The notes below the pieces were generated by a model that was not told where the DNA came from, made no database searches, and worked only from the letters and a program-made list of their open reading frames with translations. 64,000 nt of DNA from Thermoplasmata archaeon. GTDB lineage: Archaea > Thermoplasmatota > E2 > JACPAO01 > JAHFTW01. Location of the stretch: assembly GCA_034667725.1 (NCBI GenBank), contig JAXDQS010000006.1, positions 1-64,000 of the forward strand. Direction: 5' to 3'. The translations under genes were made by a program, and so were the position numbers. Below are positions 9,410 through 24,321 of this stretch, piece after piece (the first letter of the stretch is position 1; each line of letters opens with the position of its first letter).

Positions 9410-9417
9410 CGACCCTA

Positions 9418-9471
9418 CTGGACACAGATTCCACAGACCTTTCTCAGAGGTTCTGTGGAATCTGTGTCCAG
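9418..9471. repeat. Perfect 20-bp inverted repeat of repeat module A (REP-like hairpin)
   Basis: CTGGACACAGATTCCACAGA, 14-nt loop, TCTGTGGAATCTGTGTCCAG. Confidence 0.93.
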
Positions 9472-9528
9472 GGGGAAGCCGAGGGCGAGGTGGACGGCTT
9501 CTTGAACGCCCCGCCCCTTTTCGCCCGC

Positions 9529-11085
9529 GTGCAGACCCAGGAGGCCGCCGCCAGCCGCGAGGCCCGCATCGCCGCCGACATCGCCCGCCTCCGCCTGGGC
9601 GGCCTCCAGAAGTACAAGGACAAGCTGGCCGACGACGGCAAGCTGTTCGTGCGCGACCGCTTGGAGCTGTACTTCCCCGGCGGCCTGGAGTTCGAGGACG
9701 GCCTGTTCGCGAACAACCGCAAGGCCGACGAGGGCCTGGCCGCGGACGGCATGGTGACGGGGGTCGGCAAGATGGAGGGCCGGCCGCTGTTCGTCATCGC
9801 CAACGACTACACCGTCAAGGCCGGCAGCATGGCGGAGCGCGGCGTCGAGAAGTTCATCCGCGTCCAGGAGCGCGCGCTACGCGCCAAGAAGCCGATCCTC
9901 TACCTCATCGACTCGTCCGGCGCGCGCATCACCGACCAGTCCGGCTTCTTCGCCAACAACCGCGGCATTGGGAAGTACTTCTACAACCACAGCATCCTGT
10001 CGGGCAAGATTCCCCAGGTGTCGGTGCTGTACGGGCCGTGCGTCGCAGGTGCTGCCTACACGCCGGTGTTCTGCGACTTCAGCATCATGGTGCGCGGCAT
10101 GAGCGCCCTGTGCATCGCGAGCCCCCGCATGGTCGAGATGGTGACGGGCGAGAAGATCGGGATGCAGGAGCTGGGCGGCGCCGACTTCCACATGGAGGTC
10201 TCCGGCTCGTGCCACATGGTGGTGGACTCGGAGGAGGAGGCCGCGCTGGCGGTCTGGCGCCTCATGAGCTACCTGCCCGACAACTGCGACCAACGCCCGC
10301 CCCGCTACGAGACGGCCGAGCCCGCCCGCAGCCCCTCGGAACTGGCCCGCATCGTCCCCGAGGACCCGAACAAGGCGTTCGACATGCACGACGCCATCGA
10401 CACCCTGGTGGACGCGGGCTCCTGGTTCGAAATCAAGGCCGGCCACGCCCAAGAACTCCTGACCGGCTTCGCCCGCGTCGGCGGCATGGTGGTCGGCCTC
10501 GTCGCCAACAACACCGCCGTGCGCGCCGGCGCCATCTTCCCCCAAAGCGCCGACAAGGCCGCCGAGTTCATCCTCGCCTGCGACGCCTACAACGTCCCCC
10601 TGCTGTACCTCAGCGACACGCCCGGCTTCATGGTCGGCAGCGAGGTCGAGGCGCAAGGCATCCTCAAGCGCGGCAAGAAGTTCATCTACGCCACCTCGAC
10701 GGCCACCGTGCCGAAGCTGTGCATCGTGGTCCGCAAGGCCTACGGCGCCGGCATCTACGCCATGTGCGGCCCCGCCTTCGAGCCCGACGCCACCCTCGCC
10801 CTCCCCGGCGCGGAGATCGCCGTCATGGGCGCCGAGGCCGCCGTGAACGCCGTGTTCGCCAACCACATCGCCAAGATCGCCGACCCGAAGGAGCGCGCCG
10901 CCTACGTCGAGCAGAAGCGCACCGAGTACAAGGCCGACATCGACATCCACGTCGTCGCGGACGACCTGATCGTGGACCACATCGTGCCGCCAGCAGAGCT
11001 GCGCCGCGAGGTCATCGCCCGGCTGGAAGCGTACCAGGACAAGCACCTGGCGCTGCCGAAGCGGGGGCATGGCACCGTGATCTAG
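9529..11085 (+). CDS. Acyl-CoA carboxylase carboxyltransferase (beta) subunit, MCC/PCC type
   Basis: GKLFVRDRL, ANDYTVKAGS, DSSGARI, GPCVAGAAY, DTPGFMVG, RKAYGAGIYAM. GTG start inferred. Confidence 0.93.
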   Translation: MQTQEAAASREARIAADIARLRLGGLQKYKDKLADDGKLFVRDRLELYFPGGLEFEDGLFANNRKADEGLAADGMVTGVGKMEGRPLFVIANDYTVKAGSMAERGVEKFIRVQERALRAKKPILYLIDSSGARITDQSGFFANNRGIGKYFYNHSILSGKIPQVSVLYGPCVAGAAYTPVFCDFSIMVRGMSALCIASPRMVEMVTGEKIGMQELGGADFHMEVSGSCHMVVDSEEEAALAVWRLMSYLPDNCDQRPPRYETAEPARSPSELARIVPEDPNKAFDMHDAIDTLVDAGSWFEIKAGHAQELLTGFARVGGMVVGLVANNTAVRAGAIFPQSADKAAEFILACDAYNVPLLYLSDTPGFMVGSEVEAQGILKRGKKFIYATSTATVPKLCIVVRKAYGAGIYAMCGPAFEPDATLALPGAEIAVMGAEAAVNAVFANHIAKIADPKERAAYVEQKRTEYKADIDIHVVADDLIVDHIVPPAELRREVIARLEAYQDKHLALPKRGHGTVI

Positions 11086-11242: not shown

Positions 11243-13840
11243 CTACGCCTTCGGCTGCTTGCCCTTCTTCGGCCCGGAGGCGTTCTTGCCCTCGATGTCG
11301 GCGGCCGCGATGTCGCGCTTGGGCTGCGTCGTCCAGACGGACTCGTGCTCCATCTTGACCTCGAACTCGGTCTGGCCGGGGTTGGAGAGGTCGGCGGCGT
11401 CGCGCTCCTCGCGGTCGAGCTGCGTCTCGTAGGCCTCGGCGTCGGCGGCGCTGCGCATCTTGGGCAGCTCCTTGCGCTCCCAGGCCAGCTTGGCCTCGTA
11501 GGTGTCGACGTCGGCGGCGCTGCGCATCTTGGGCAGCTCGCGGCCTTCCTTGGCGATGCGGGCCTCGTAGGACTCGACGTCCGCCGCGGACTGGAGCTTG
11601 GGCATCTCGCGGTGGTCGCGGGACAGCTTGGCCTCGATGGCTTCGCCGTCGGTGACGTTGCGGAGCTTCGGCAGCGGCTTGGCCTCGGCGTCGCGCTTGG
11701 CGTGGATGGACTCGCCGTCGGTGACGTTGCGCAGCCTGGGCAGCGGCTTGGCCTCGGCGTCGCGGCGGGCCTCGATGGGCTCGGTGTCCGTGACGTTGCG
11801 CAGCCTGGGCAGCGGCTTGGCCTCGGCGTCGCGGCGGGCCTCGAGGGCGCCGTCGGTGACGTTGCGCAGCTTGGGCAGCGGCTTGGCTTCGGCGTCCTGG
11901 CGGGTCTCCAGGGCGTCGTCGGTGACGTTGCGCAGCTTGGGCAGCGGCTTGGCCTCGGCGTCCTGGCGCGTCTCCAGGGAGTCGTCGGAGACGTTGCGGA
12001 GCTTCGGCATCACCTTGTGCTCGGAGTCGCGGCGGGCCTCGACGGCCTCGTCGGTGACGTTGCGAAGCTTCGGGAGCGGCTTGGCCTCGGCGTCGCGGCG
12101 GGCCTCGACGGCCCCGTCGGTGACGTTGCGGAGCTTCGGCATCACCTTGTGCTCCGAGTCGCGGCGGGCCTCCAGGGCGCCGTCGGTGACGTTGCGCAGC
12201 TTCGGGAGGGGCTTGGCCTCGGCGTCCTGGCGCGCCTCGACGGTCTCGTCGGCGGCGTTGCGCATCTTGGGCAGCGCCTTCGGCTCGGCGTCGCGGCGGG
12301 CCTCGAAGGCCTGCTCGCCGAAGCGGATGCGGGGGGCGGCGCGGGACTCCTTGTCCTGGCGCGCCTCGACCTCGGTCTCCTGGATCTTGAGCTTGGGGGC
12401 GGAGCGGGTCTCGCGGTCGACGCGGGCCTCGAAGCTGGCCTCGCCGGGCGCGCGCAGCTTGGGCGCCTCGCGGGTCTCGCGGTCCTGGCGGGCCTCGAAC
12501 TTGGCCTCGCCGGGGGCGCGGAACTTGGGAGTGTCGCGGTGCTCGCGGTCGACGCGGGCCTCGATGGCGGAGTCGGCGGCGTTGCGCATCTTCGGGGCGT
12601 CGCGGGCCTCACGGTCGAGGCGGGTCTCGAAGTGCGCGCCGGCCAGGGCGGACAGGTTGGGGGCAGCGGGGCGCGACTCGGCGTCGCGCCTGACGGCGAC
12701 GGCCTCGTCGCCGGCGCCCTTCATCTTCGGGAGGGCCTTGGGTTCGGCGTCGCGCCGGGTCTCGACGGCCTCGTCGCCGGGGCTGCGCATGCGGGGCAGC
12801 TCGCGGCGCTCCTCGCGGCGCACCTGGGCGTGGCCCTTGGGGAGCGGGTTGGCGGCCGGCTTTGAGGCCTTGGTGGGCAGCTCCAGCGGGGTGGCGGCGC
12901 CCAAGACCTCGGCGACCTTGTCCATGGAGGACTTGGCCAGCTCGGAGCTCTGGGCGTCCGACTTGACGGCGAACTCGTCGGCGTCGGCCGGCGAGACGAT
13001 GCGGAACTCCTCCTTCTCGTCCTTCGACAGCTTGACCTCGAAGTCGTCGGTGTCGGCGGGGGAGCGGATCTTGCCTTGGCTGGCCTCGGCGGCGTCCTTG
13101 CGGACCTCGAAGCCGCCGGCGGCGGTCTTGCCGGTCCCGGTGGGGACGTGGTGGGGCTTGGGGGCGCGGATGTCCACCGTGCCGGCGTCGCCCGCGAGGG
13201 GCGCCGTGGGCTTGGCGCCGGGCTTCTGGACCTCGAAGTCGCCGGCGTCGAAGCCGGCGGCCTGGGCGGCGGTCTTGGCCTTCGGGGCCTTGACCTCGAA
13301 GGCGGCCTCGTCGACGTCCTCGTGCTGCACGCGGGCGGCACGGGGCTTCTGGACCTCGACGTCGCCCAGGCTCGCCAGCTTCGCGGCGGCGTCCTTGGCG
13401 GGCGTCGAGGAGTCCGGCACGTCCGGGCGGTCCACCGCGGCCGCCGCCATCGCCGCAAGGCGCTTGGCGGACAGGGCCGCGGGGGCTGCCGGCTTCGGGG
13501 CCGGGGCGGGCTCGGGCTCCGGCGCGGCGGGGAGGGTCACGGACTTGCCGTGCTTCTTCTCCTCGGCCTCGACGGCGGCGTCGATCTCGGCAAACAGCTC
13601 CTCGTCGGAGATGGTCTTGACGTTGGGCTTGGGGCCAGGGGCGGCGCCGCCGCCGGCGGCAAGGTTCACTTTCCCCGTCTTGGGGTCGTACTCCTTGCTG
13701 CCGGCGGAGCCGGACTTGGCCTCGTTGAAGGAGCGGACGGAAACGGCCGCGTCCTCTTCATCTGTGACCTTGGCGCTGAAGGCCGCCATGCGGGCCGCCC
13801 TCTGCTTTGCATCCTCGGAGGAGGGGGTGGGTTTGCTCAT
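11243..13840 (-). CDS. 865-aa charged, probably disordered cytoplasmic tandem-repeat protein
   Basis: No signal peptide or TM; ~22 repeats of 21-23 aa like ALEARRDAEAKPLPKLRNVTDG; ~8 upstream FEVKxP-like motifs. Confidence 0.85.
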   Translation of the reverse strand: MSKPTPSSEDAKQRAARMAAFSAKVTDEEDAAVSVRSFNEAKSGSAGSKEYDPKTGKVNLAAGGGAAPGPKPNVKTISDEELFAEIDAAVEAEEKKHGKSVTLPAAPEPEPAPAPKPAAPAALSAKRLAAMAAAAVDRPDVPDSSTPAKDAAAKLASLGDVEVQKPRAARVQHEDVDEAAFEVKAPKAKTAAQAAGFDAGDFEVQKPGAKPTAPLAGDAGTVDIRAPKPHHVPTGTGKTAAGGFEVRKDAAEASQGKIRSPADTDDFEVKLSKDEKEEFRIVSPADADEFAVKSDAQSSELAKSSMDKVAEVLGAATPLELPTKASKPAANPLPKGHAQVRREERRELPRMRSPGDEAVETRRDAEPKALPKMKGAGDEAVAVRRDAESRPAAPNLSALAGAHFETRLDREARDAPKMRNAADSAIEARVDREHRDTPKFRAPGEAKFEARQDRETREAPKLRAPGEASFEARVDRETRSAPKLKIQETEVEARQDKESRAAPRIRFGEQAFEARRDAEPKALPKMRNAADETVEARQDAEAKPLPKLRNVTDGALEARRDSEHKVMPKLRNVTDGAVEARRDAEAKPLPKLRNVTDEAVEARRDSEHKVMPKLRNVSDDSLETRQDAEAKPLPKLRNVTDDALETRQDAEAKPLPKLRNVTDGALEARRDAEAKPLPRLRNVTDTEPIEARRDAEAKPLPRLRNVTDGESIHAKRDAEAKPLPKLRNVTDGEAIEAKLSRDHREMPKLQSAADVESYEARIAKEGRELPKMRSAADVDTYEAKLAWERKELPKMRSAADAEAYETQLDREERDAADLSNPGQTEFEVKMEHESVWTTQPKRDIAAADIEGKNASGPKKGKQPKA
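11370..12830 (-). repeat. Coding tandem repeat, 63-69 nt unit, ~22 copies
   Basis: Recurrent + strand string GTCGGTGACGTTGCGCAGCTTGGGCAGCGGCTTGGCCTCGGCGTC; central copies are most conserved. Confidence 0.9.
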
Positions 13841-13866
13841 GACGATCGCCGCCTAGCCGGCGGCTC

Positions 13867-14940
13867 TCAGTTGGAGCCGCCCTTCTTGACCTTGGGGAGA
13901 GGCTGTTCGTCCTCGATGACGACGGTGCTGCCGCGCTTGGGCAGGCTGGCCGCCTTCGCGACCTTGGCCGCGGTGTCGGCGGGCGCCTTGCCGTTGCGGG
14001 CCGGGGCCGCGGGGGCCGCCGGGGCCGCGCGGGTCGCGGCGGCGGCCGGCTTGTTGCGGCCGGTCAGCGCGTTCCAGAAGCGGCGCCAGAAGCCGACCTT
14101 CGGGGTGTAGAGGGTCGGGTTGGCGGCCTTCTGCTTGCGGAAGGCGATGAGGGCGCGGGTGGACTCGTCGGCCCACTCGCCGGGGAGGGCGCCGCGCTTG
14201 TTGGGGCGGACGCCCGAGAGCTGGGCGACGCCTTCGTCGACCTGGGCGGCGTCCACCTGGACGACACGGGCCTTGCCGAGGCCGCCGATGACGGCGCCGG
14301 CGCCGAGGGAGTCGGGGATGTTGACCTTCATCGCGCTGGAGTTGGCGGAGGAGCCGACCAGCTCGACGCCGAACTTCTTCATGGCGTACTCGATGTCGCG
14401 CTCGACGACCCAGTCGGGGACCTCGTAGCCGGGGCCGTAGGCCTCGTCGTCGTCCTCGGACTCCTTGGTGGCGGTGCCCTGCAGGCGGCCGAGGTAGTAG
14501 CCGACGACGCTGGAGATGATGGCCGCGAGCATGAAGCCCAGGCCGATCACGAACAGGCCGACGTCGAGCCAGGCGTAGTCGGTCTTGCCGCCGCGGGCGC
14601 TCACGAAGATCTCGTTCGGGTAGTGGACCACGAACAGGATGGTCGCCATCAGGGTGGCGCTGAAGCCGGCCCAGGACGCGACCCGGAGGCCGGTCTTGGT
14701 GGGCAGGGCCACCGTGATGCCCAGGAAGAGGCTGGGCAGCGACAGGGCGCCGAGGGGCAGCGCGACGCGCCGCCAGGCAATCTGGTCGGTGGCCGGCTGG
14801 CCCAGCGAGATGAAGAAGAGAGTCAAGGCAGCGAGACCGAGGAGGACACCCAGGCCCAGCAGGAAGAATCCTGCTTGGAGCTGGCCCTTGGAGGTCTTGG
14901 TGCCGAACAAAGCGCTGTATCGGTTCTCAAGTTCTGACAT
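13867..14940 (-). CDS. Membrane protein: 4 N-terminal TM helices plus a cytoplasmic domain (possibly DUF7139-like)
   Basis: Four hydrophobic segments with FVVHYP, an acidic linker, and a basic amphipathic GFWRRFWNALTG segment. DUF7139 likeness is recalled, not verified. Confidence 0.75.
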   Translation of the reverse strand: MSELENRYSALFGTKTSKGQLQAGFFLLGLGVLLGLAALTLFFISLGQPATDQIAWRRVALPLGALSLPSLFLGITVALPTKTGLRVASWAGFSATLMATILFVVHYPNEIFVSARGGKTDYAWLDVGLFVIGLGFMLAAIISSVVGYYLGRLQGTATKESEDDDEAYGPGYEVPDWVVERDIEYAMKKFGVELVGSSANSSAMKVNIPDSLGAGAVIGGLGKARVVQVDAAQVDEGVAQLSGVRPNKRGALPGEWADESTRALIAFRKQKAANPTLYTPKVGFWRRFWNALTGRNKPAAAATRAAPAAPAAPARNGKAPADTAAKVAKAASLPKRGSTVVIEDEQPLPKVKKGGSN

Positions 14941-14979
14941 GGAGCGATCCTCGGTGAGGCGGGGGAAGGTAAGACCAAC

Positions 14980-15040
14980 CAGGGGGGCTGGGGGTGAGTG
15001 GGAAGGAAGGAGCGGGGAAGGGGAGAGGGAAGGAGGTGGA
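14980..15040 (-). terminator. Pyrimidine-rich tract downstream of the actin gene (possible terminator or attenuator)
   Basis: Minus strand reads CCTCCTTCCTCTCCCTTCCCCGCTCCTTCCTTCCC just after the stop. Confidence 0.4.
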
Positions 15041-15072
15041 GGCCCGCACGCGGCGGGGTTCAGCCTTGCGGC

Positions 15073-16095
15073 TTACTTCTTGCTGTCGACGGCGACGAGC
15101 TCCTCGAGGGTCTCGGCCTCCTCGGCGCGCGCGGCGACGAGGGTGCCCATGGCCACCGAGTAGAGCGGGCTGCGGGCCATCTTGACCTTCGAGATCTCGA
15201 AGGGCAGGTTGGCCTCGTAGATGCGGCGCTCGAACAGGTCCTTGAAGCCCTTGCACGAGGCCGTGCCGCCGGTGATGGCGACCGGGATCGTGAGGCCTTC
15301 CTCGACCTTCGCCTTCGCAAGCTCGCGCTTGAGGGTGCGGATGGCGTACTCGACGAGGTTGTCGTAGTAGATGGTCAGGGCGCTCTGGACCTCGCCGGAG
15401 GGGTTCTCCGGGTTGATCTCGAACTCGCGCTCCTTGATCGCGGTGACGCGGTCCTTGGAGTGGCCGGTGGCCTCAGCGACCTGCTGGTCGATCCAGTCGC
15501 CGCCGCGGGCGACCGCGGTGGTCATGACCGGGAGACCGTAGTGCGAGACGCACATGTTGGTCATGCCGGCGCCGAACGAGACGCCCAGGCCGGTGAACTG
15601 GTTGTCGGCCAGCTCGGAGTAGACGACGGCCATGCCCTCGTTGATCACGCGGGGGGTGTAGTCCAGCTTGCGCAGGATCGACTCGATGGTCTTCTGGTGG
15701 TACAGGACGTCCTGGTTGGGGGCGTCGACCGGGCGGGCCGGCGAGGTGTAGTAGAGAATCTCGCCAGACTCCTTCGGGGCGCCGACCAGGCGCTCGATGA
15801 TCAAGCGGATCATCGGGATGGCCGACTTCTCGTCGCGCGACAGGATGCCCTTCTGCATGGGGCGGCGGGTCGCGGTGTTGAAGATGTTCGCGAAGTTGAG
15901 GGCGTCCTCACCGACGATGAACACCTGGTTGTCCTTCTTGATGTACAGCACGTCGCTGCGGGCCAGCATCTTCTCGGCGACGTCGGAGTACTCAATCTCG
16001 ACGAAGGAGTTGCGCTGCTGCGTGAGCGTCGTCTTGTCACCGTGCCTCTCGGCGGCGATGATGTTCATCGTGCCGACGTCCAATCCCTTTGCCAT
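15073..16095 (-). CDS. volA: Actin-fold ATPase, volactin-like
   Basis: Phosphate-1 GLDVGT, connect-1 INEG, phosphate-2 SFGAGMT, RGGDWID, adenosine ITGGT. N-terminus MAKGLDVGTMNI...QQRNSFVEIEYSD matches my recollection of haloarchaeal volactin. GGAGG RBS at 16103-16107. Confidence 0.88.
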   Translation of the reverse strand: MAKGLDVGTMNIIAAERHGDKTTLTQQRNSFVEIEYSDVAEKMLARSDVLYIKKDNQVFIVGEDALNFANIFNTATRRPMQKGILSRDEKSAIPMIRLIIERLVGAPKESGEILYYTSPARPVDAPNQDVLYHQKTIESILRKLDYTPRVINEGMAVVYSELADNQFTGLGVSFGAGMTNMCVSHYGLPVMTTAVARGGDWIDQQVAEATGHSKDRVTAIKEREFEINPENPSGEVQSALTIYYDNLVEYAIRTLKRELAKAKVEEGLTIPVAITGGTASCKGFKDLFERRIYEANLPFEISKVKMARSPLYSVAMGTLVAARAEEAETLEELVAVDSKK

Positions 16096-16120: not shown

Positions 16121-16410
16121 CGGAATGGCCAGGTCGCGTCCAGAAGGACGTTTCCTGTCATCCGTGGTTGGAAGCGCCCAAGGATGGGACCTATTTACGG
16201 TTATGCCCCAGTGCTCGTTCCTCCTGGAAACGGGCCGTTTTGGCCCACACGGGAATCATGCACGGCGAGGATCGATTGCCGGCGGCCGTTTTTCGGCCTC
16301 GGCCGGCACCTCGGTTTCCCATGCAAAACCCTATGGCGACGCGCCGGCTCGCAAGGCATCGGGAGGGATGGGGGACGCGGATTGTCAAGAAGACCCTGAA
16401 GGGCGACCTG

Positions 16411-17400
16411 ATGGGCCGCACCGGGTTCAAGGAGGTCAAGCAGCCGCGCCGCAAGGCCGGCGACGAACCCGAGAAGGCCGCCGCGCCGACGCCTTCCTCT
16501 CCTGTTGCGGCGGCCCCCCCCAAGGCCACCGACGCCACCCGCCGCATCCTCGAGGCGCTGCGGGACGACGACGTCGTGGTGATCACCGAGCCGCTGCACC
16601 CGCGCCACGGCCGCGCCATCGTGCTCGACCGCGACCACCGTGAAATCTCCAGTGTCGCCCAGCAGGCGCCCAGCGGCACCGACGCGAACCTGGCCGGCGC
16701 CCCTTCGATTCCGCCGGTTCCGCCCATCCCGCCGCACGCGGCCCCGCCCAAGCCGACCGCGCCGCTTTCTTCTCCTCGCAAGAAAACAATCCAGGCAACC
16801 GCGCTCCAACAGGAGGCGGCGGCCCCCACCGCGCGCACGCTGCAGCAGGCCGAGGCCGCCCCCGCTCCCGGCGCCGCAAGGCGCGCCGCGGAGCTGGACG
16901 GCGGCGCCATCGCGCTGGCGCGCAGCGTCATCGCCGAGGCCGTGTACCGCGAGTTCGGCGCCGGCGGCTCCAAGGTCCAGCAGCCCAAAGGCATGAACTT
17001 CCTGCTGCACCCGCGCCGCCCCGCCGGGGTGGTGCGCACCCAGCACAACCTGATGCTGCCCCTTCCGTCGGGCATGGCCACCAGCCACCACGCCGACGTG
17101 GTCGTCGAGCTGGAGAACGGCGCCGTGCTGATGCTCGACGTCGTGCCCAGCAGCGTGTCGGTGACGGAGCTGAAGGCGCGCGCGTTCGACGCGCTGCAGC
17201 TGCGCCGCCTCGACCTGGCGTTCTCCATCCTGGTGTTCGTGCGCGCCCCAGGAGGGATGCCGCAGGAGCAGGCCGAGGCCCTCGGGCACGGCTACGACTT
17301 CCACTTCGGCATCGCGGAGGATCAGGTCCACTCGGAGCAGTCGTTCGCGGCGCTGCGGGCGCGAATCGGGTCCTGGCTCGACGCGAACGGGGCGAAGTAG
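16411..17400 (+). CDS. Pro/Ala-rich N-terminus plus a degenerate GxxExxY / PD-(D/E)XK-like C-terminal domain
   Basis: VYREFGAG..VRTQ..HHADVVVE..VLMLDV..FSILVF aligns by eye with the GxxExxY pattern VHRELGPG..VERQ..YRxDLLVE..VIVELK..GLLINF. Start uncertain (in-frame ATGs at 16321, 16333, 16411). Confidence 0.6.
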   Translation: MGRTGFKEVKQPRRKAGDEPEKAAAPTPSSPVAAAPPKATDATRRILEALRDDDVVVITEPLHPRHGRAIVLDRDHREISSVAQQAPSGTDANLAGAPSIPPVPPIPPHAAPPKPTAPLSSPRKKTIQATALQQEAAAPTARTLQQAEAAPAPGAARRAAELDGGAIALARSVIAEAVYREFGAGGSKVQQPKGMNFLLHPRRPAGVVRTQHNLMLPLPSGMATSHHADVVVELENGAVLMLDVVPSSVSVTELKARAFDALQLRRLDLAFSILVFVRAPGGMPQEQAEALGHGYDFHFGIAEDQVHSEQSFAALRARIGSWLDANGAK

Positions 17401-17427
17401 CTCCCGTCTGATTGGACAGCGCGCCTC

Positions 17428-17800
17428 CTGGACACAGATTCCACAGACGGTCTGTGGGGATCTTCCGAATCCGTGCGAATCAGTGCTCGTCGCGCGCCGC
17501 CGACTGGACACAGATTCCACAGATGGTCTCTGGACACACAGACTCCACAGACGGTCTGTGGGGATCTTCCCAATCTGAGAGCATCAGTGCTCGTCGCGGG
17601 CCGCCGACTGACACAGATTCCACAGAGCCCCTCTGGACGCAACACTCCACAGAGCGCCTTCTGGACGACGAACCCCATGGACGGTCTGTGGGAATCTTCC
17701 GAATCTGTGCGAATCAGTGCTCGTCGCGCGTTCCCTGGACACAGACTCCACAAGATGCTCTGTGGGAATCTTCCCAATCTGCGGGAACCAGTGCCCGTCG
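17428..17800 (+). repeat. Mosaic intergenic repeat array (A-B-A-A-B-A-A-A-B-A-B)
   Basis: A = CTGGACACAGATTCCACAGA (7 copies, some degenerate); B = TCTGTGGGAATCTTCCGAATCTGTGCGAATCAGTGCTCGTCGCG (4 copies). Confidence 0.92.
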
Positions 17801-21995: not shown

Positions 21996-22604
21996 GTGCC
22001 CACGCCCGCGCCCACGCCGCGCTTCGTCGCCTTCGAGGGCATCGACGGGTCCGGCAAGTCCACCGCGCTGCGCCACGCCGCCGACGCCCTGCGCCGCAGG
22101 GGCGAGCGGGTGTGGGCCACGCGCGAGGAGACCGACGGCCCCACCGGCGAGCTGGTGCGCCGCAGCATCGCCGAGCATTGGCCTCCCGTGGCGACCGCGT
22201 TCCAGTTCCTGGCCGACCGGGCCCGCCATGCGCACGAGATCGAGGCCCGGCTGGCCGCGGGCGAGCGGGTGCTGTGCGACCGCTTCCTCCACTCCACCCT
22301 CGCGTACCAGGCCGTGACCCTGGCCGGGGTGCTGCCGGAGCCGCGGGCGTGGCTGCGCGGGCTGCACGACGGCTGGTGCCCCATGCCCGACCGCGTCGTG
22401 CTGTTCAACAGCGACCCGGCCAAGGCCGTCTCCCGCATCGCGGCGCGCGGCGCCGCCACGGCCTACGAGAAGGCGGCGTTCCTGGGGAAGGTGCGGGCGG
22501 AGTACCTGGCGCTGGCGCGCGAGGAGCCGGAGCGGTTCGTGGTGCTGGACGCGGACGCGCCGATGGGGGTCTTGGCGCAGCGGGCGCTGGCGGCGTTGGA
22601 CTGA
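21996..22604 (+). CDS. tmk: Thymidylate kinase
   Basis: FEGIDGSGKST, ADRARH, CDRF..STLAYQ. Confidence 0.95.
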   Translation: MPTPAPTPRFVAFEGIDGSGKSTALRHAADALRRRGERVWATREETDGPTGELVRRSIAEHWPPVATAFQFLADRARHAHEIEARLAAGERVLCDRFLHSTLAYQAVTLAGVLPEPRAWLRGLHDGWCPMPDRVVLFNSDPAKAVSRIAARGAATAYEKAAFLGKVRAEYLALAREEPERFVVLDADAPMGVLAQRALAALD

Positions 22605-22613
22605 CACAGATGA

Positions 22614-24059
22614 TCAAAGCAGGAAAAAAGGGTCGTTCGGCGTAGGCTGGGGAAGTCCTCGAAGTCGGGGACCATCACCCACGAGCAAAGTTTCCGCCAA
22701 ATCCAAGGCTTGACGCCCCTGCCCTTCCGTCACTGTCGGATCGCCATGCGCGAACTTGTTCCGAATCCCACGGATGGGCCGCAACTGTTCGAACAGTTCT
22801 GCTTGCAACATACCCGCCAGTTGCAGCACTTCGCAGCGGACGTCAACATCCCAGTCAGTCCCTTCGAGTTTTTCTCGACGGCGGTTCGAGACGCCTTTGG
22901 ATGCAAGAAAGGCTTGCCAGATTTCGGCCAACTTGGTCTCGATGATAGACCAAGAAAACAGGAACGACTGGGCGGCTTCTTGGCTCTCCAAGTGCGTCAG
23001 TGCCTCCAAAAACAGTGGAATCTTGTCCGCATAGGCCATCCGTGAAAGTTCCTCTGCGTGGCACAACACGCGCTCGAATTCTTGGTTTGTGACACGATGC
23101 TGGGCAAAGGCATCCCTTCCACGTCGTCCGTTCGAAGGATAGGAGCCGCCCCAACTCGGACTCGAATCAGGGGGCGGATAGACCGAAGCAAGGTCCCTAT
23201 TTCGGACGATTGCCGCGGGGAGTCCTTCCCTCAGTAAACCTGCCATCACGAAATTGAACCATCGATGCGCGGCCGCCTCGTCTGGGGTTTCAATCCCAAT
23301 GAAGCCGTTGTGGGTCGCCATGACTGCCAGACCGCCCAGTTGTCCTCTGAAGACTAAGACTCCGGGGAAAGAATCCTGGTCCCGCGGCCAATACCAGTCA
23401 CTGAGTCGATTGCTTTCCACCTTTCCAATCCTGATGTTCGCAGGCAGGAAGGCACCCCGGACTGGCGGGATGGGTTCAGGCGAAGGGACGCTGGACAGAG
23501 TGCTTGAAGGGGTTGGGATAGATGCGTGTGGAGCCCTCATCCTTGCCCGCTCCTCGGCGTCGCGGAAGGCTTCGTCGATCCACACTCTCGGGTCGATTTC
23601 TTGGAGCGGCCCGATGTGATGGAACACAGTGCAGGCTTCAGAGATGAGGTTCGTCTGAACAAACTTGTGCGGGTCCATCAGGAATGAAAGCCGGGAATAG
23701 CTGCTCACGCTGTCAATCGCCTGAAATCCCATTTCCCGCAAAGTCTTGAACTGCAGTTCCTCAATCCCTTCTCCTAGGGATTCGTCCCATAACGGGAGGG
23801 CGAATGCGGCCTCCATGGTCTTGCTCAGTTCGGGGCCTCGAACGTCCCCCCATGTCCTGATGTTGCCGTCCTCCGCCCTCGGGATTCGAACCGCAATGAA
23901 GGACTGCCAAGGTGGATTCTTCCGCGAGAACGCAAGAAACTGGACGGGGGCGCGGAAGTCTCGCCATCGGACGGCCTCCTTCTGAACCTCAGCGGGCGCC
24001 TGACTGAAGCGCTCCCTGAAATGCGCCACCGCGAGCTGAATCCATTCCTCTAGCTCCAC
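22614..24059 (-). CDS. Putatively foreign protein with C-terminal HEPN-like domain
   Basis: Visibly lower GC and many A/T-ending codons; FLFSWSIIE helix and RNKFAH (Rx4H) motif. Confidence 0.7.
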   Translation of the reverse strand: MELEEWIQLAVAHFRERFSQAPAEVQKEAVRWRDFRAPVQFLAFSRKNPPWQSFIAVRIPRAEDGNIRTWGDVRGPELSKTMEAAFALPLWDESLGEGIEELQFKTLREMGFQAIDSVSSYSRLSFLMDPHKFVQTNLISEACTVFHHIGPLQEIDPRVWIDEAFRDAEERARMRAPHASIPTPSSTLSSVPSPEPIPPVRGAFLPANIRIGKVESNRLSDWYWPRDQDSFPGVLVFRGQLGGLAVMATHNGFIGIETPDEAAAHRWFNFVMAGLLREGLPAAIVRNRDLASVYPPPDSSPSWGGSYPSNGRRGRDAFAQHRVTNQEFERVLCHAEELSRMAYADKIPLFLEALTHLESQEAAQSFLFSWSIIETKLAEIWQAFLASKGVSNRRREKLEGTDWDVDVRCEVLQLAGMLQAELFEQLRPIRGIRNKFAHGDPTVTEGQGRQALDLAETLLVGDGPRLRGLPQPTPNDPFFLL

Positions 24060-24110
24060 GCCCCGGCACCGGGCAGGCGACTAGATGAGGCTGCCAGGGT
24101 GCGAATGGAA

Positions 24111-24266
24111 CTACTTGGGCTCTAGCGGCCGCTTCGGCTTCGCCTTGACCTGGTAGCTCCAGTTGCGCTTGGCCATGATGCTCGAGAACCAGTAGCACAG
24201 AAGCGTGAAGCCGACGGTGCCGACCGCCCCGATGACGACCACGTCGAGCCAGGTCAGGTCTGCCAT
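24111..24266 (-). CDS. 51-aa single-TM protein absent from the ORF track
   Basis: Manual translation MADLTWLDVVVIGAVGTVGFTLLCYWFSSIMAKRNWSYQVKAKPKRPLEPK; host-like GC3-rich codons. Confidence 0.7.
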   Translation of the reverse strand: MADLTWLDVVVIGAVGTVGFTLLCYWFSSIMAKRNWSYQVKAKPKRPLEPK

Positions 24267-24321
24267 TGGGCTCGCATGGCCGTGGACCCCACAAAAGGGG
24301 TGTGGTCATGCCTTGGAGCCG

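Follow-up and report, generated by a model that had tools for sequence, protein, structure and literature searches.

In MreB and RodZ an actin-like filament is encoded together with its membrane partner, MreB lying flat on the membrane and binding RodZ at subdomain IIA, while in MamK and MamJ an actin-like filament is paired with a repeat-rich disordered partner. In Haloferax volcanii, volactin (HVO_2015) forms dynamic filaments that have their tips attached to the membrane, depolymerise rapidly in vivo, are independent of the division site and have a role in disk shape (PMC10869688). The same paper names neither an anchor nor a binding factor for these tip-held filaments (PMC10869688). The statement of the first-pass annotation that no membrane anchor is defined for volactin is only partly right, since the CdpA-like HVO_2016 has already been pointed out as the neighbour of volactin (PMC12126565). 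Furthermore, HVO_2016 co-varies with HVO_2015 in the proteomics of the volactin paper (3 of 5 comparisons significant, supplement file 5; PMC10869688). Neither publication (PMC10869688, PMC12126565) gives an account of volactin/HVO_2016 binding or of the helix motif described below. In other actin folds partners are known to bind preferentially in the groove formed by subdomains IA and IIA, a hot spot occupied by a short helix in ParM:ParR, crenactin:arcadin-2 and actin:WH2/thymosin; arcadin-2 is encoded in the gene cluster of its actin, and such groove binders can depolymerise, as arcadin-2 does on crenactin (PMC5173319).

The window, a stretch of 64,000 nucleotides from a Thermoplasmata archaeon, contains three co-oriented minus-strand genes, which encode a volactin, a CdpA-like four-TM protein and a tandem-repeat protein (Table 1) and of which the last two are separated by 26 nt. 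Each is present in one copy in the genome, which is 90% complete. The first two belong to the same two adjacent families as HVO_2015/HVO_2016 of H. volcanii and share their cytoplasmic module (PMC10869688, PMC12126565), but here the gene order is reversed, the host is a member of the Thermoplasmatota and no cetZ5 adjoins within the window; moreover, the third gene was not seen in halobacterial loci. On balance, we read the cluster as a system of volactin filaments tethered to the membrane and supplemented by a lineage-specific accessory, a reading we hold somewhat more readily than its denial. The antisense ORFs overlapping the three genes were ruled out by a codon model, and a 345-aa ORF located at 16191-17228(-) was recognised as the shadow of 16411-17400(+).

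Table 1. Features of the volactin locus, in the order of transcription
Feature	Position	Strand	Remarks
Volactin (VolA), actin-fold ATPase, 340 aa	15073..16095	-	PF25216, 405.9 bits (cut-off 35); AlphaFold2 fold
132-nt spacer	14941..15072	-	G+C hairpins, then long C/T tract
CdpA-like (HVO_2016-type) four-TM protein of 357 aa, putative membrane anchor of volactin	13867..14940	-	PF23600, 84.5 bits (cut-off 30); AlphaFold2, tree, complex
Cytoplasmic helix A (residues 173-189)	14374..14424	-	conserved in volactin-linked members; contacts volactin in model
Beta strand and helix B (residues 222-245)	14206..14277	-	predicted interface core; motif copy 1
Helix C (residues 257-272)	14125..14172	-	motif copy 2; common to phage volactin partners
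Amphipathic aromatic/basic helix (residues 283-294)	14059..14094	-	moment 0.66
Tandem-repeat protein, 865 aa, probably disordered, third gene	11243..13840	-	orthologues of 690-956 aa across genus
N-terminal segment (residues 5-62)	13655..13828	-	common to a 230-330-aa protein family, E 3e-19
Acidic helix (residues 76-92), resembles anchor helix A	13565..13615	-	present 1-3 times in orthologues of the genus
Array of 22 units of 21-23 aa	11300..12766	-	ends in Trp-containing terminal motif

In the case of the first gene, the PF25216 match covers model positions 1-321 of 321, and the product carries the nucleotide motifs found in all 61 archaeal volactins (D6, G8, T9, E153, S173, G175, G177, G276 and G277). 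AlphaFold2 gives an actin fold with a pLDDT of 90, comparable to BeeR (VIA Z 26.1, rmsd 3.5, 304 aligned), MreB (24.6) and crenactin (24.5). The sequence is 96-99.7% identical within the genus and 57-60% identical to the halobacterial copies, and in a quick tree drawn without other actin families it groups with archaeal volactins, apart from those of phages (SH-aLRT 100). Sequence and model together identify the product as a volactin with the nucleotide site of its family, which bears out the intact actin-fold ATPase of the first-pass annotation. Judging from H. volcanii, it would assemble into dynamic filaments running across the cytoplasm, with their tips attached to the membrane, and a shape role for the cluster may be envisaged by analogy.

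The second gene encodes four TM helices (residues 18-47, 50-78, 83-106 and 123 to about 150) and a basic tail from residue 274 to 357 (15 K+R, 4 D+E) that includes an amphipathic helix followed by 60 disordered residues, in agreement with the four-TM protein with amphipathic basic tail originally annotated. The amphipathic helix, absent in genera g4 and g6, is likely a second membrane contact. No related solved structure was found by sequence, and Foldseek with the protein model returned no matches. The volactin and CdpA-like genes adjoin in 27 of the 29 Thermoplasmatota genomes that have both (12 with volactin first, 9 with the TM gene first, 6 divergent), the remaining two pairs being split at contig ends, and in all 30 halobacterial loci examined; in one genome (G028) the pair is duplicated as a whole. 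Across phyla, every volactin-linked member scores for the cytoplasmic module, whereas no CdpA or unlinked member does. With a profile built from halobacterial modules only, the protein studied here ranks first of 2090 proteins, with a weak score of 11.2 bits (close relatives reach 19-39 bits). It is a volactin-linked CdpA-like protein of the HVO_2016 type, volactin-adjacent and with helices A, B and C.

The complex of volactin and the CdpA-like protein, modelled on our own alignments as had been suggested, obtained a score of 0.82 compared to 0.24 for the best control, which passes a mark reached by 58 of 80 solved pairs and 2 of 110 mismatched pairs. The runs share at least 62% of contacts and the partner pLDDT is low, at 52-54. 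According to the prediction, the disordered cytoplasmic tail would fold upon volactin, adding a beta strand to volactin strand 3 while helix B enters the IA/IIA groove, a site assigned by motif mapping and not by superposition. Since actin folds in general tend to be bound in this groove, a likeness of fold may account for part of the pass; conservation of the volactin interface residues does not exceed the average (0.74 vs 0.78). The second motif copy lies 23 residues after the first, outside the 1:1 model interface. In 45 of 80 phage loci, an archaeal helix-C profile finds the motif at most 25 residues from the C-terminus of a protein encoded on the same strand as volactin; the helix motif that is duplicated in the anchor module thus also ends partner proteins of phage volactins. 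ParR, arcadin-2 and WH2/thymosin are soluble or DNA-bound, whereas the partner here is integral to the membrane and has its motif duplicated, and no sequence kinship with them was found. Together, adjacency in two phyla, the module restricted to volactin-linked members and the complex prediction give good support to the proposed filament with a membrane anchor, of which the anchoring itself is predicted. From the model, the CdpA-like protein is the best candidate for membrane attachment of volactin filaments, and there is a good chance that it anchors volactin directly. The analysis provides an anchor candidate, a 25-residue segment and a predicted binding site for volactin (HVO_2016, HVO_2015), an extension of the module to Thermoplasmatota, and one motif linking it to phage volactin partners.

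The third gene product, annotated as a soluble repeat protein, has indeed no TM segment, and it falls on the disordered side of the charge-hydropathy plot. Its repeat units begin at residue 359 with a spacing of 21-23 aa (19 and 22 half-motif matches compared to at most 1-2 in shuffles), and are visible at the DNA level as 66/69-bp arrays. No credible Pfam or NCBIfam match and no Atlas match was obtained; DUF3248 gave no passing stretch, and the distant matches outside the short family among 1.8 billion representatives (P0093, P0099) are repeat noise. Immediately behind the anchor, the gene occurs in 9 genomes belonging to the genus, in three further genomes (G015, G017 and G025) and on six contigs from metagenomes, and it recurs at this position in several genera in short or expanded forms, the 230-330-aa proteins that share its N-terminal segment often filling the same place. 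The terminal Trp-containing motif is common to four genera. The 600-aa protein of G017 is missed by a genus-only profile (terminal motif E 0.8) and is tied in only through this motif and G015 (E 2e-16 to G017, 5e-6 to 4e-4 to the genus), so that its homology is weak. Outside its order the third gene was not found in 301 genomes, nor was it found with most volactins. Hence, of the synteny expected for three genes, the volactin/CdpA-like pair is kept in two phyla while the third position is kept only within one order.

We consider that the repeat protein is probably a soluble accessory of the volactin system. It could also be an unrelated lineage-specific neighbour, or bind FtsZ, SepF, DNA or the product of the divergent upstream gene, a possibility to which we give real but lesser credit; it concerns the third gene only and is compatible with a volactin filament and its anchor. 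The restriction to one order, the fast divergence and the gene order shared by descent in kin speak for it, as do some short homologues located elsewhere, beside pyruvate kinase, the Lys-rich tails with which short forms start, and profile-profile comparisons of the anchor and repeat-protein families without significant match. However, the third gene keeps its place next to the anchor even where the genes further downstream differ, the two overlap by 4 nt in G015 and G017, which represent two genera, and in L188 it separates the anchor from a second volactin. Moreover, the helix-A-like segment ranks second of 2090 proteins in likeness (0 of 300 shuffles), and hhalign chooses the same segment, but with an E of 0.33. 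Matching the N-terminal helix to helix C scored poorly.

Within a volactin filament, the IA/IIA groove would be free at one end only; a CdpA-like protein bound there would hold the tips at the membrane and so account for the tip attachment that has been published. With its second motif copy it could retain another volactin subunit and could thus nucleate the filament or keep its growing end. Alternatively, the protein could be a membrane-bound sequesterer or depolymeriser of volactin in the same groove, like arcadin-2 (PMC5173319). The predicted site would be the same for both roles and volactin depolymerises rapidly in vivo, but such a role fits poorly with a protein that is integral to the membrane and has the motif twice, and the membrane-held tips would stay unexplained, so that we regard it as improbable.

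Division, the other role originally proposed, is unlikely. CdpA (HVO_0739), a haloarchaeal midcell anchor in complex with SepF, CdpB and FtsZ2 (PMC12126565), likewise combines a PF23600 four-TM domain with a largely disordered cytoplasmic tail in an anchor logic, but it has a PF23601 domain, a separate branch and a tail without helices A, B and C. No match to PF23601, the small C-terminal domain of CdpA, was found in the genome at E 1 (it is present in L108), and in a tree from which HVO_0739 itself was left out the four unlinked sequences from halobacteria constitute a branch of their own (100), outside which the query lies. Sequence thus places the product as CdpA-like and not CdpA proper. 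Given also that the filaments are independent of the division site (PMC10869688), it is quite doubtful that it acts as the functional CdpA of an FtsZ-based division cluster, even though no other PF23600 protein was found in this genome, which encodes two FtsZ and one SepF, and volactin is weakly present in CdpA pull-downs (p 0.06).

Returning to the accessory reading of the third gene, its repeats might tentatively bind several volactin subunits weakly, as a bundler, spacer or monomer buffer; a multivalent scaffold, as first annotated, is plausible but weak. The likeness of the repeats to the helix motif, first noticed by eye, has a p of about 0.01 with the archaeal profile and 0.6 with the phage profile; the unit carries a helix-breaking Pro, and the likeness is absent from G017-type repeats. 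The array is very improbably of WH2/thymosin type, for while an LRNV word in about 10 central units recalls the WH2 LKKV word, there is no WH2 or Xin match in Pfam at E 10, the last two positions across 158 units are mostly S/N and P/A with V in only 8%, and the stretch before the word holds Pro and no hydrophobic helix, giving no helix plus LKK[TV]-type word in 158-169 units. Long halobacterial volactins carry coiled coils and not these repeats, which set aside a Rosetta-stone idea. MamJ is acidic and unrelated in sequence.

Nebulin and tandem-WH2 nucleators use one short repeat per filament subunit, an analogy only, no homology to the repeat protein being detected; by such logic a stretch of 22 residues, if extended, could cover the subunit rise of roughly 5 nm. 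We think it rather unlikely, but conceivable, that archaea and phages share a general volactin-binding helix motif, of which the CdpA-like protein would use two copies to nucleate filaments and hold their tips at the membrane, and the repeat protein about 22 degenerate copies, each repeat binding one subunit, so as to serve as a ruler in the manner of nebulin, as a bundler or as a store of monomers. If so, a prokaryotic actin cytoskeleton of three parts would exist outside Asgard archaea; should the repeat protein bind filaments, it would be a multivalent regulator of actin of a kind rare in prokaryotes. Finally, the spacer between the volactin and CdpA-like genes measures 132 nt here compared to 1-39 nt in most relatives checked.

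An ORF listing of the window confirmed that the three co-oriented genes proposed by the first-pass annotation exist in the layout it described. Gene 1 matches PF25216 (Volactin) at 405.9 bits, and its AlphaFold2 model displays an actin fold (pLDDT 90) with BeeR (Z 26.1, rmsd 3.5, 304 aligned), MreB (24.6) and crenactin (24.5) as nearest solved structures; by sequence, the best PDB match is MamK (E 4e-7). Its nucleotide residues are the same as in 61/61 aligned archaeal volactins. Gene 2, for which DUF7139 had been suggested, indeed matches PF23600 (DUF7139; CdpA_N in newer annotation), and AlphaFold2 predicts four TM helices and, behind them, a largely disordered tail containing helices at 176-190, 231-243, 254-273 and 284-293. 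Within the genus, copies of gene 1 are 96-99.7% identical and those of gene 2 49-62%. The window, contig C6, comes from a 2.3 Mb genome (completeness 90%); most relatives whose volactin is 96-97% identical are labelled Thermoplasmatota or Thermoplasmata, with other labels on a few, and several come from groundwater. Since the volactin composition is not acidic, the host is likely a non-halophile.

Coordinates of the genes and other features
Feature	Location	Position	Strand	Length
Gene 1, volactin	window	15073-16095	-	340 aa
Gene 2, CdpA-like four-TM protein (proposed anchor)	window	13867-14940	-	357 aa
Helices A, B (with strand), C	gene 2 residues	173-189, 222-245, 257-272
Gene 3, repeat protein	window	11243-13840	-	865 aa
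Spacer, genes 1/2	window	14941-15072
Divergent gene	window	16411-17400	+	329 aa
Dispersed repeat	window	17300-17800, 9410-9490
Uncalled gap like the repeat	window	22600-24300
Basic-hydrophobic-acidic terminal word	window; L047; L286	~13900-13930; 10580-10613;
Coiled-coil second volactin (example)	L148	6099-9653	+
Divergent second volactin, family f2	L049; L050	8448-9458; 9562-10457
Divergent second volactin	L188	1669-2694
Tandem duplication of the entire anchor-volactin pair (G028)	L046	5950-10331

Both families and their adjacency are already known (PMC12126565); according to that paper, HVO_2016, a CdpA-like four-TM protein, adjoins volactin (HVO_2015) in H. volcanii. Among the papers searched, HVO_2016 was named only there and in the preprint, and no test of its link to volactin was found in their accessible text. 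The searchable papers gave no account of the cytoplasmic module, its duplicated motif, binding in the groove or the third gene.

Synteny of the pair holds across relatives. Among 301 Thermoplasmatota genomes, volactin was found in 30 and PF23600 in 33; 29 have both (one volactin being truncated), with the pair adjacent in 27 (12 volactin then anchor, 9 anchor then volactin, 6 divergent) and split at contig ends in two. Two genomes have volactin only, one copy being fragmentary and the other clustering with phage volactins. In Halobacteria, volactin occurs in 70/121 genomes and follows the anchor in 30/30 fetched loci, kin genomes in all these counts not being independent. Descent alone would hardly account for an adjacency that persists across three arrangements and two phyla. 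A halobacteria-only cytoplasmic profile picked up all volactin-linked Thermoplasmatota proteins (4.9-38.7 bits), the converse one gave 47-68 bits for the tested halobacterial volactin-linked proteins, and neither picked up CdpA-type or unlinked proteins. In the proteomics data of PMC10869688, HVO_2016 abundance shifts in the direction of HVO_2015 in most comparisons. The supplements also show HVO_2013 (cetZ5) and HVO_2018, near H. volcanii volactin, shifting with it. PF23600 proteins of family f24 (L097, L100, L165) are without the cytoplasmic module and carry an N-terminal coiled coil before the domain; volactin was not found in these genomes.

A division system, as the first-pass annotation had also envisaged, would fit gene 2 being the only PF23600 protein in a genome with two FtsZ and one SepF; a division role of gene 2 or the cluster is nevertheless judged unlikely, gene 2 lacking PF23601, a domain present in a CdpA-type protein, and falling outside the CdpA-type branch of the tree. 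By analogy, the filaments may control shape in the host cell.

The membrane anchor proposed by the first-pass annotation was examined by complex prediction of volactin 1-330 with gene 2 160-300, which reached 0.82 against 0.24 for the best control, a mark met by 58/80 solved complexes and 2/110 mismatched pairs (approximate, with alignments made for this analysis). At least 62% of contacts agreed between runs, with partner pLDDT 52-54. In the model, gene 2 225-229 pairs with strand 21-26 of volactin, and its helix 233-245 lies against volactin 159-167, the helix after catalytic E153, and 316-328, the C-terminal helix. From established actin anatomy, we take these two helices to line the IA/IIA subdomain groove. 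In filaments of crenactin and actin, this groove receives the following subunit; it also binds ParR, arcadin-2 and WH2 (PMC5173319). If volactin polymerises likewise, the site would be exposed at one filament end only, in agreement with attachment of volactin filaments by their tips (PMC10869688). Two caveats apply: the interface residues show no unusual conservation, and the groove is a hot spot that a model may favour. Most likely, and with fair confidence, gene 2 would tether one end of volactin filaments, holding them at the membrane.

The helix C profile finds helix B, 22-26 residues upstream, as second-best match in 28 of the 40 sequences listed (23 residues in gene 2), with the pattern D-x5-L-x-x-hydrophobic-R. 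Two copies could hold two volactin subunits. Volactins with an intact nucleotide site were confirmed in 80 viral contigs (L204-L283); in 45/80 the best archaeal-profile match falls no more than 25 residues from the C-terminus of a product encoded on the strand of volactin, and many have a partner gene of ~200-250 codons ending in the motif. Volactin of L166 (G070:C18) clusters with phage copies, so this contig may be of viral origin.

Gene 3, probably disordered, has 22 units of 21-23 aa starting at residue 359 and no match in a family search. Orthologues of 690-956 aa lie directly behind gene 2 in 9/9 genus relatives whose contig extends there. Genera g4 and g6 have at third position a 20-aa-repeat protein sharing a terminal Trp motif, its gene and gene 2 sharing 4 nt in genomes G015 and G017; homology to gene 3 is weak and transitive. 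Through its first 60 residues, gene 3 is related to a family of proteins 230-330 aa long (E 3e-19). Members stand behind the anchor in G025 and in six metagenomic contigs (a second volactin follows in one); in G029 and P0105 they neighbour pyruvate kinase, and P0101 has the same neighbourhood. Among the 301 Thermoplasmatota genomes, none of the gene 3 family was found outside the host order, where gene 3 would be a later accessory. Three features, spotted by eye ahead of testing, hint at a tie to volactin: a likeness of residues 76-92 to helix A (ranked second among 2090 proteins, 18.5 bits vs 17.3 for the next), a repeat period as long as the helix B-to-C spacing, and alignment of the unit in the expected register with the archaeal motif profile (p about 0.01) and in the identical register with the phage profile (p 0.6). 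The 230-330-aa family's own C-terminal motif is an equally possible source of the unit. On balance, we lean towards gene 3 being linked to the volactin system; that it binds directly and multivalently is doubtful. A WH2 array was rejected by WH2 search and unit consensus.

In genus g1 the terminal word closes gene 2; in G017 and G015 it closes the third gene, and the anchors there are without the tail bearing it. The spacer contains hairpins and an extended C/T tract, exceeds that of most relatives and could keep expression of genes 2-3 below that of volactin. Families f1 and f2 retain the divergent gene upstream of volactin; it has no Pfam match and a weak Atlas lead to restriction-endonuclease-like folds. 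The dispersed repeat is apparently non-coding, with short recurring words.

Divergent second volactins stand behind the anchor, those of L049 and L050 being about 50% identical; in G030 the copy is frameshifted, and a probable HTH regulator and small kinase-like ORF intervene. In about 16/121 halobacterial genomes (loci such as L147-L156), a second volactin is fused to a 400-850-aa coiled coil, ending in a hydrophobic hairpin in both copies examined full-length. Catalytic E153 is K in 5/10, and groove residues S160 and 324 are D in 10/10; these volactins are possibly self-anchored and inactive.
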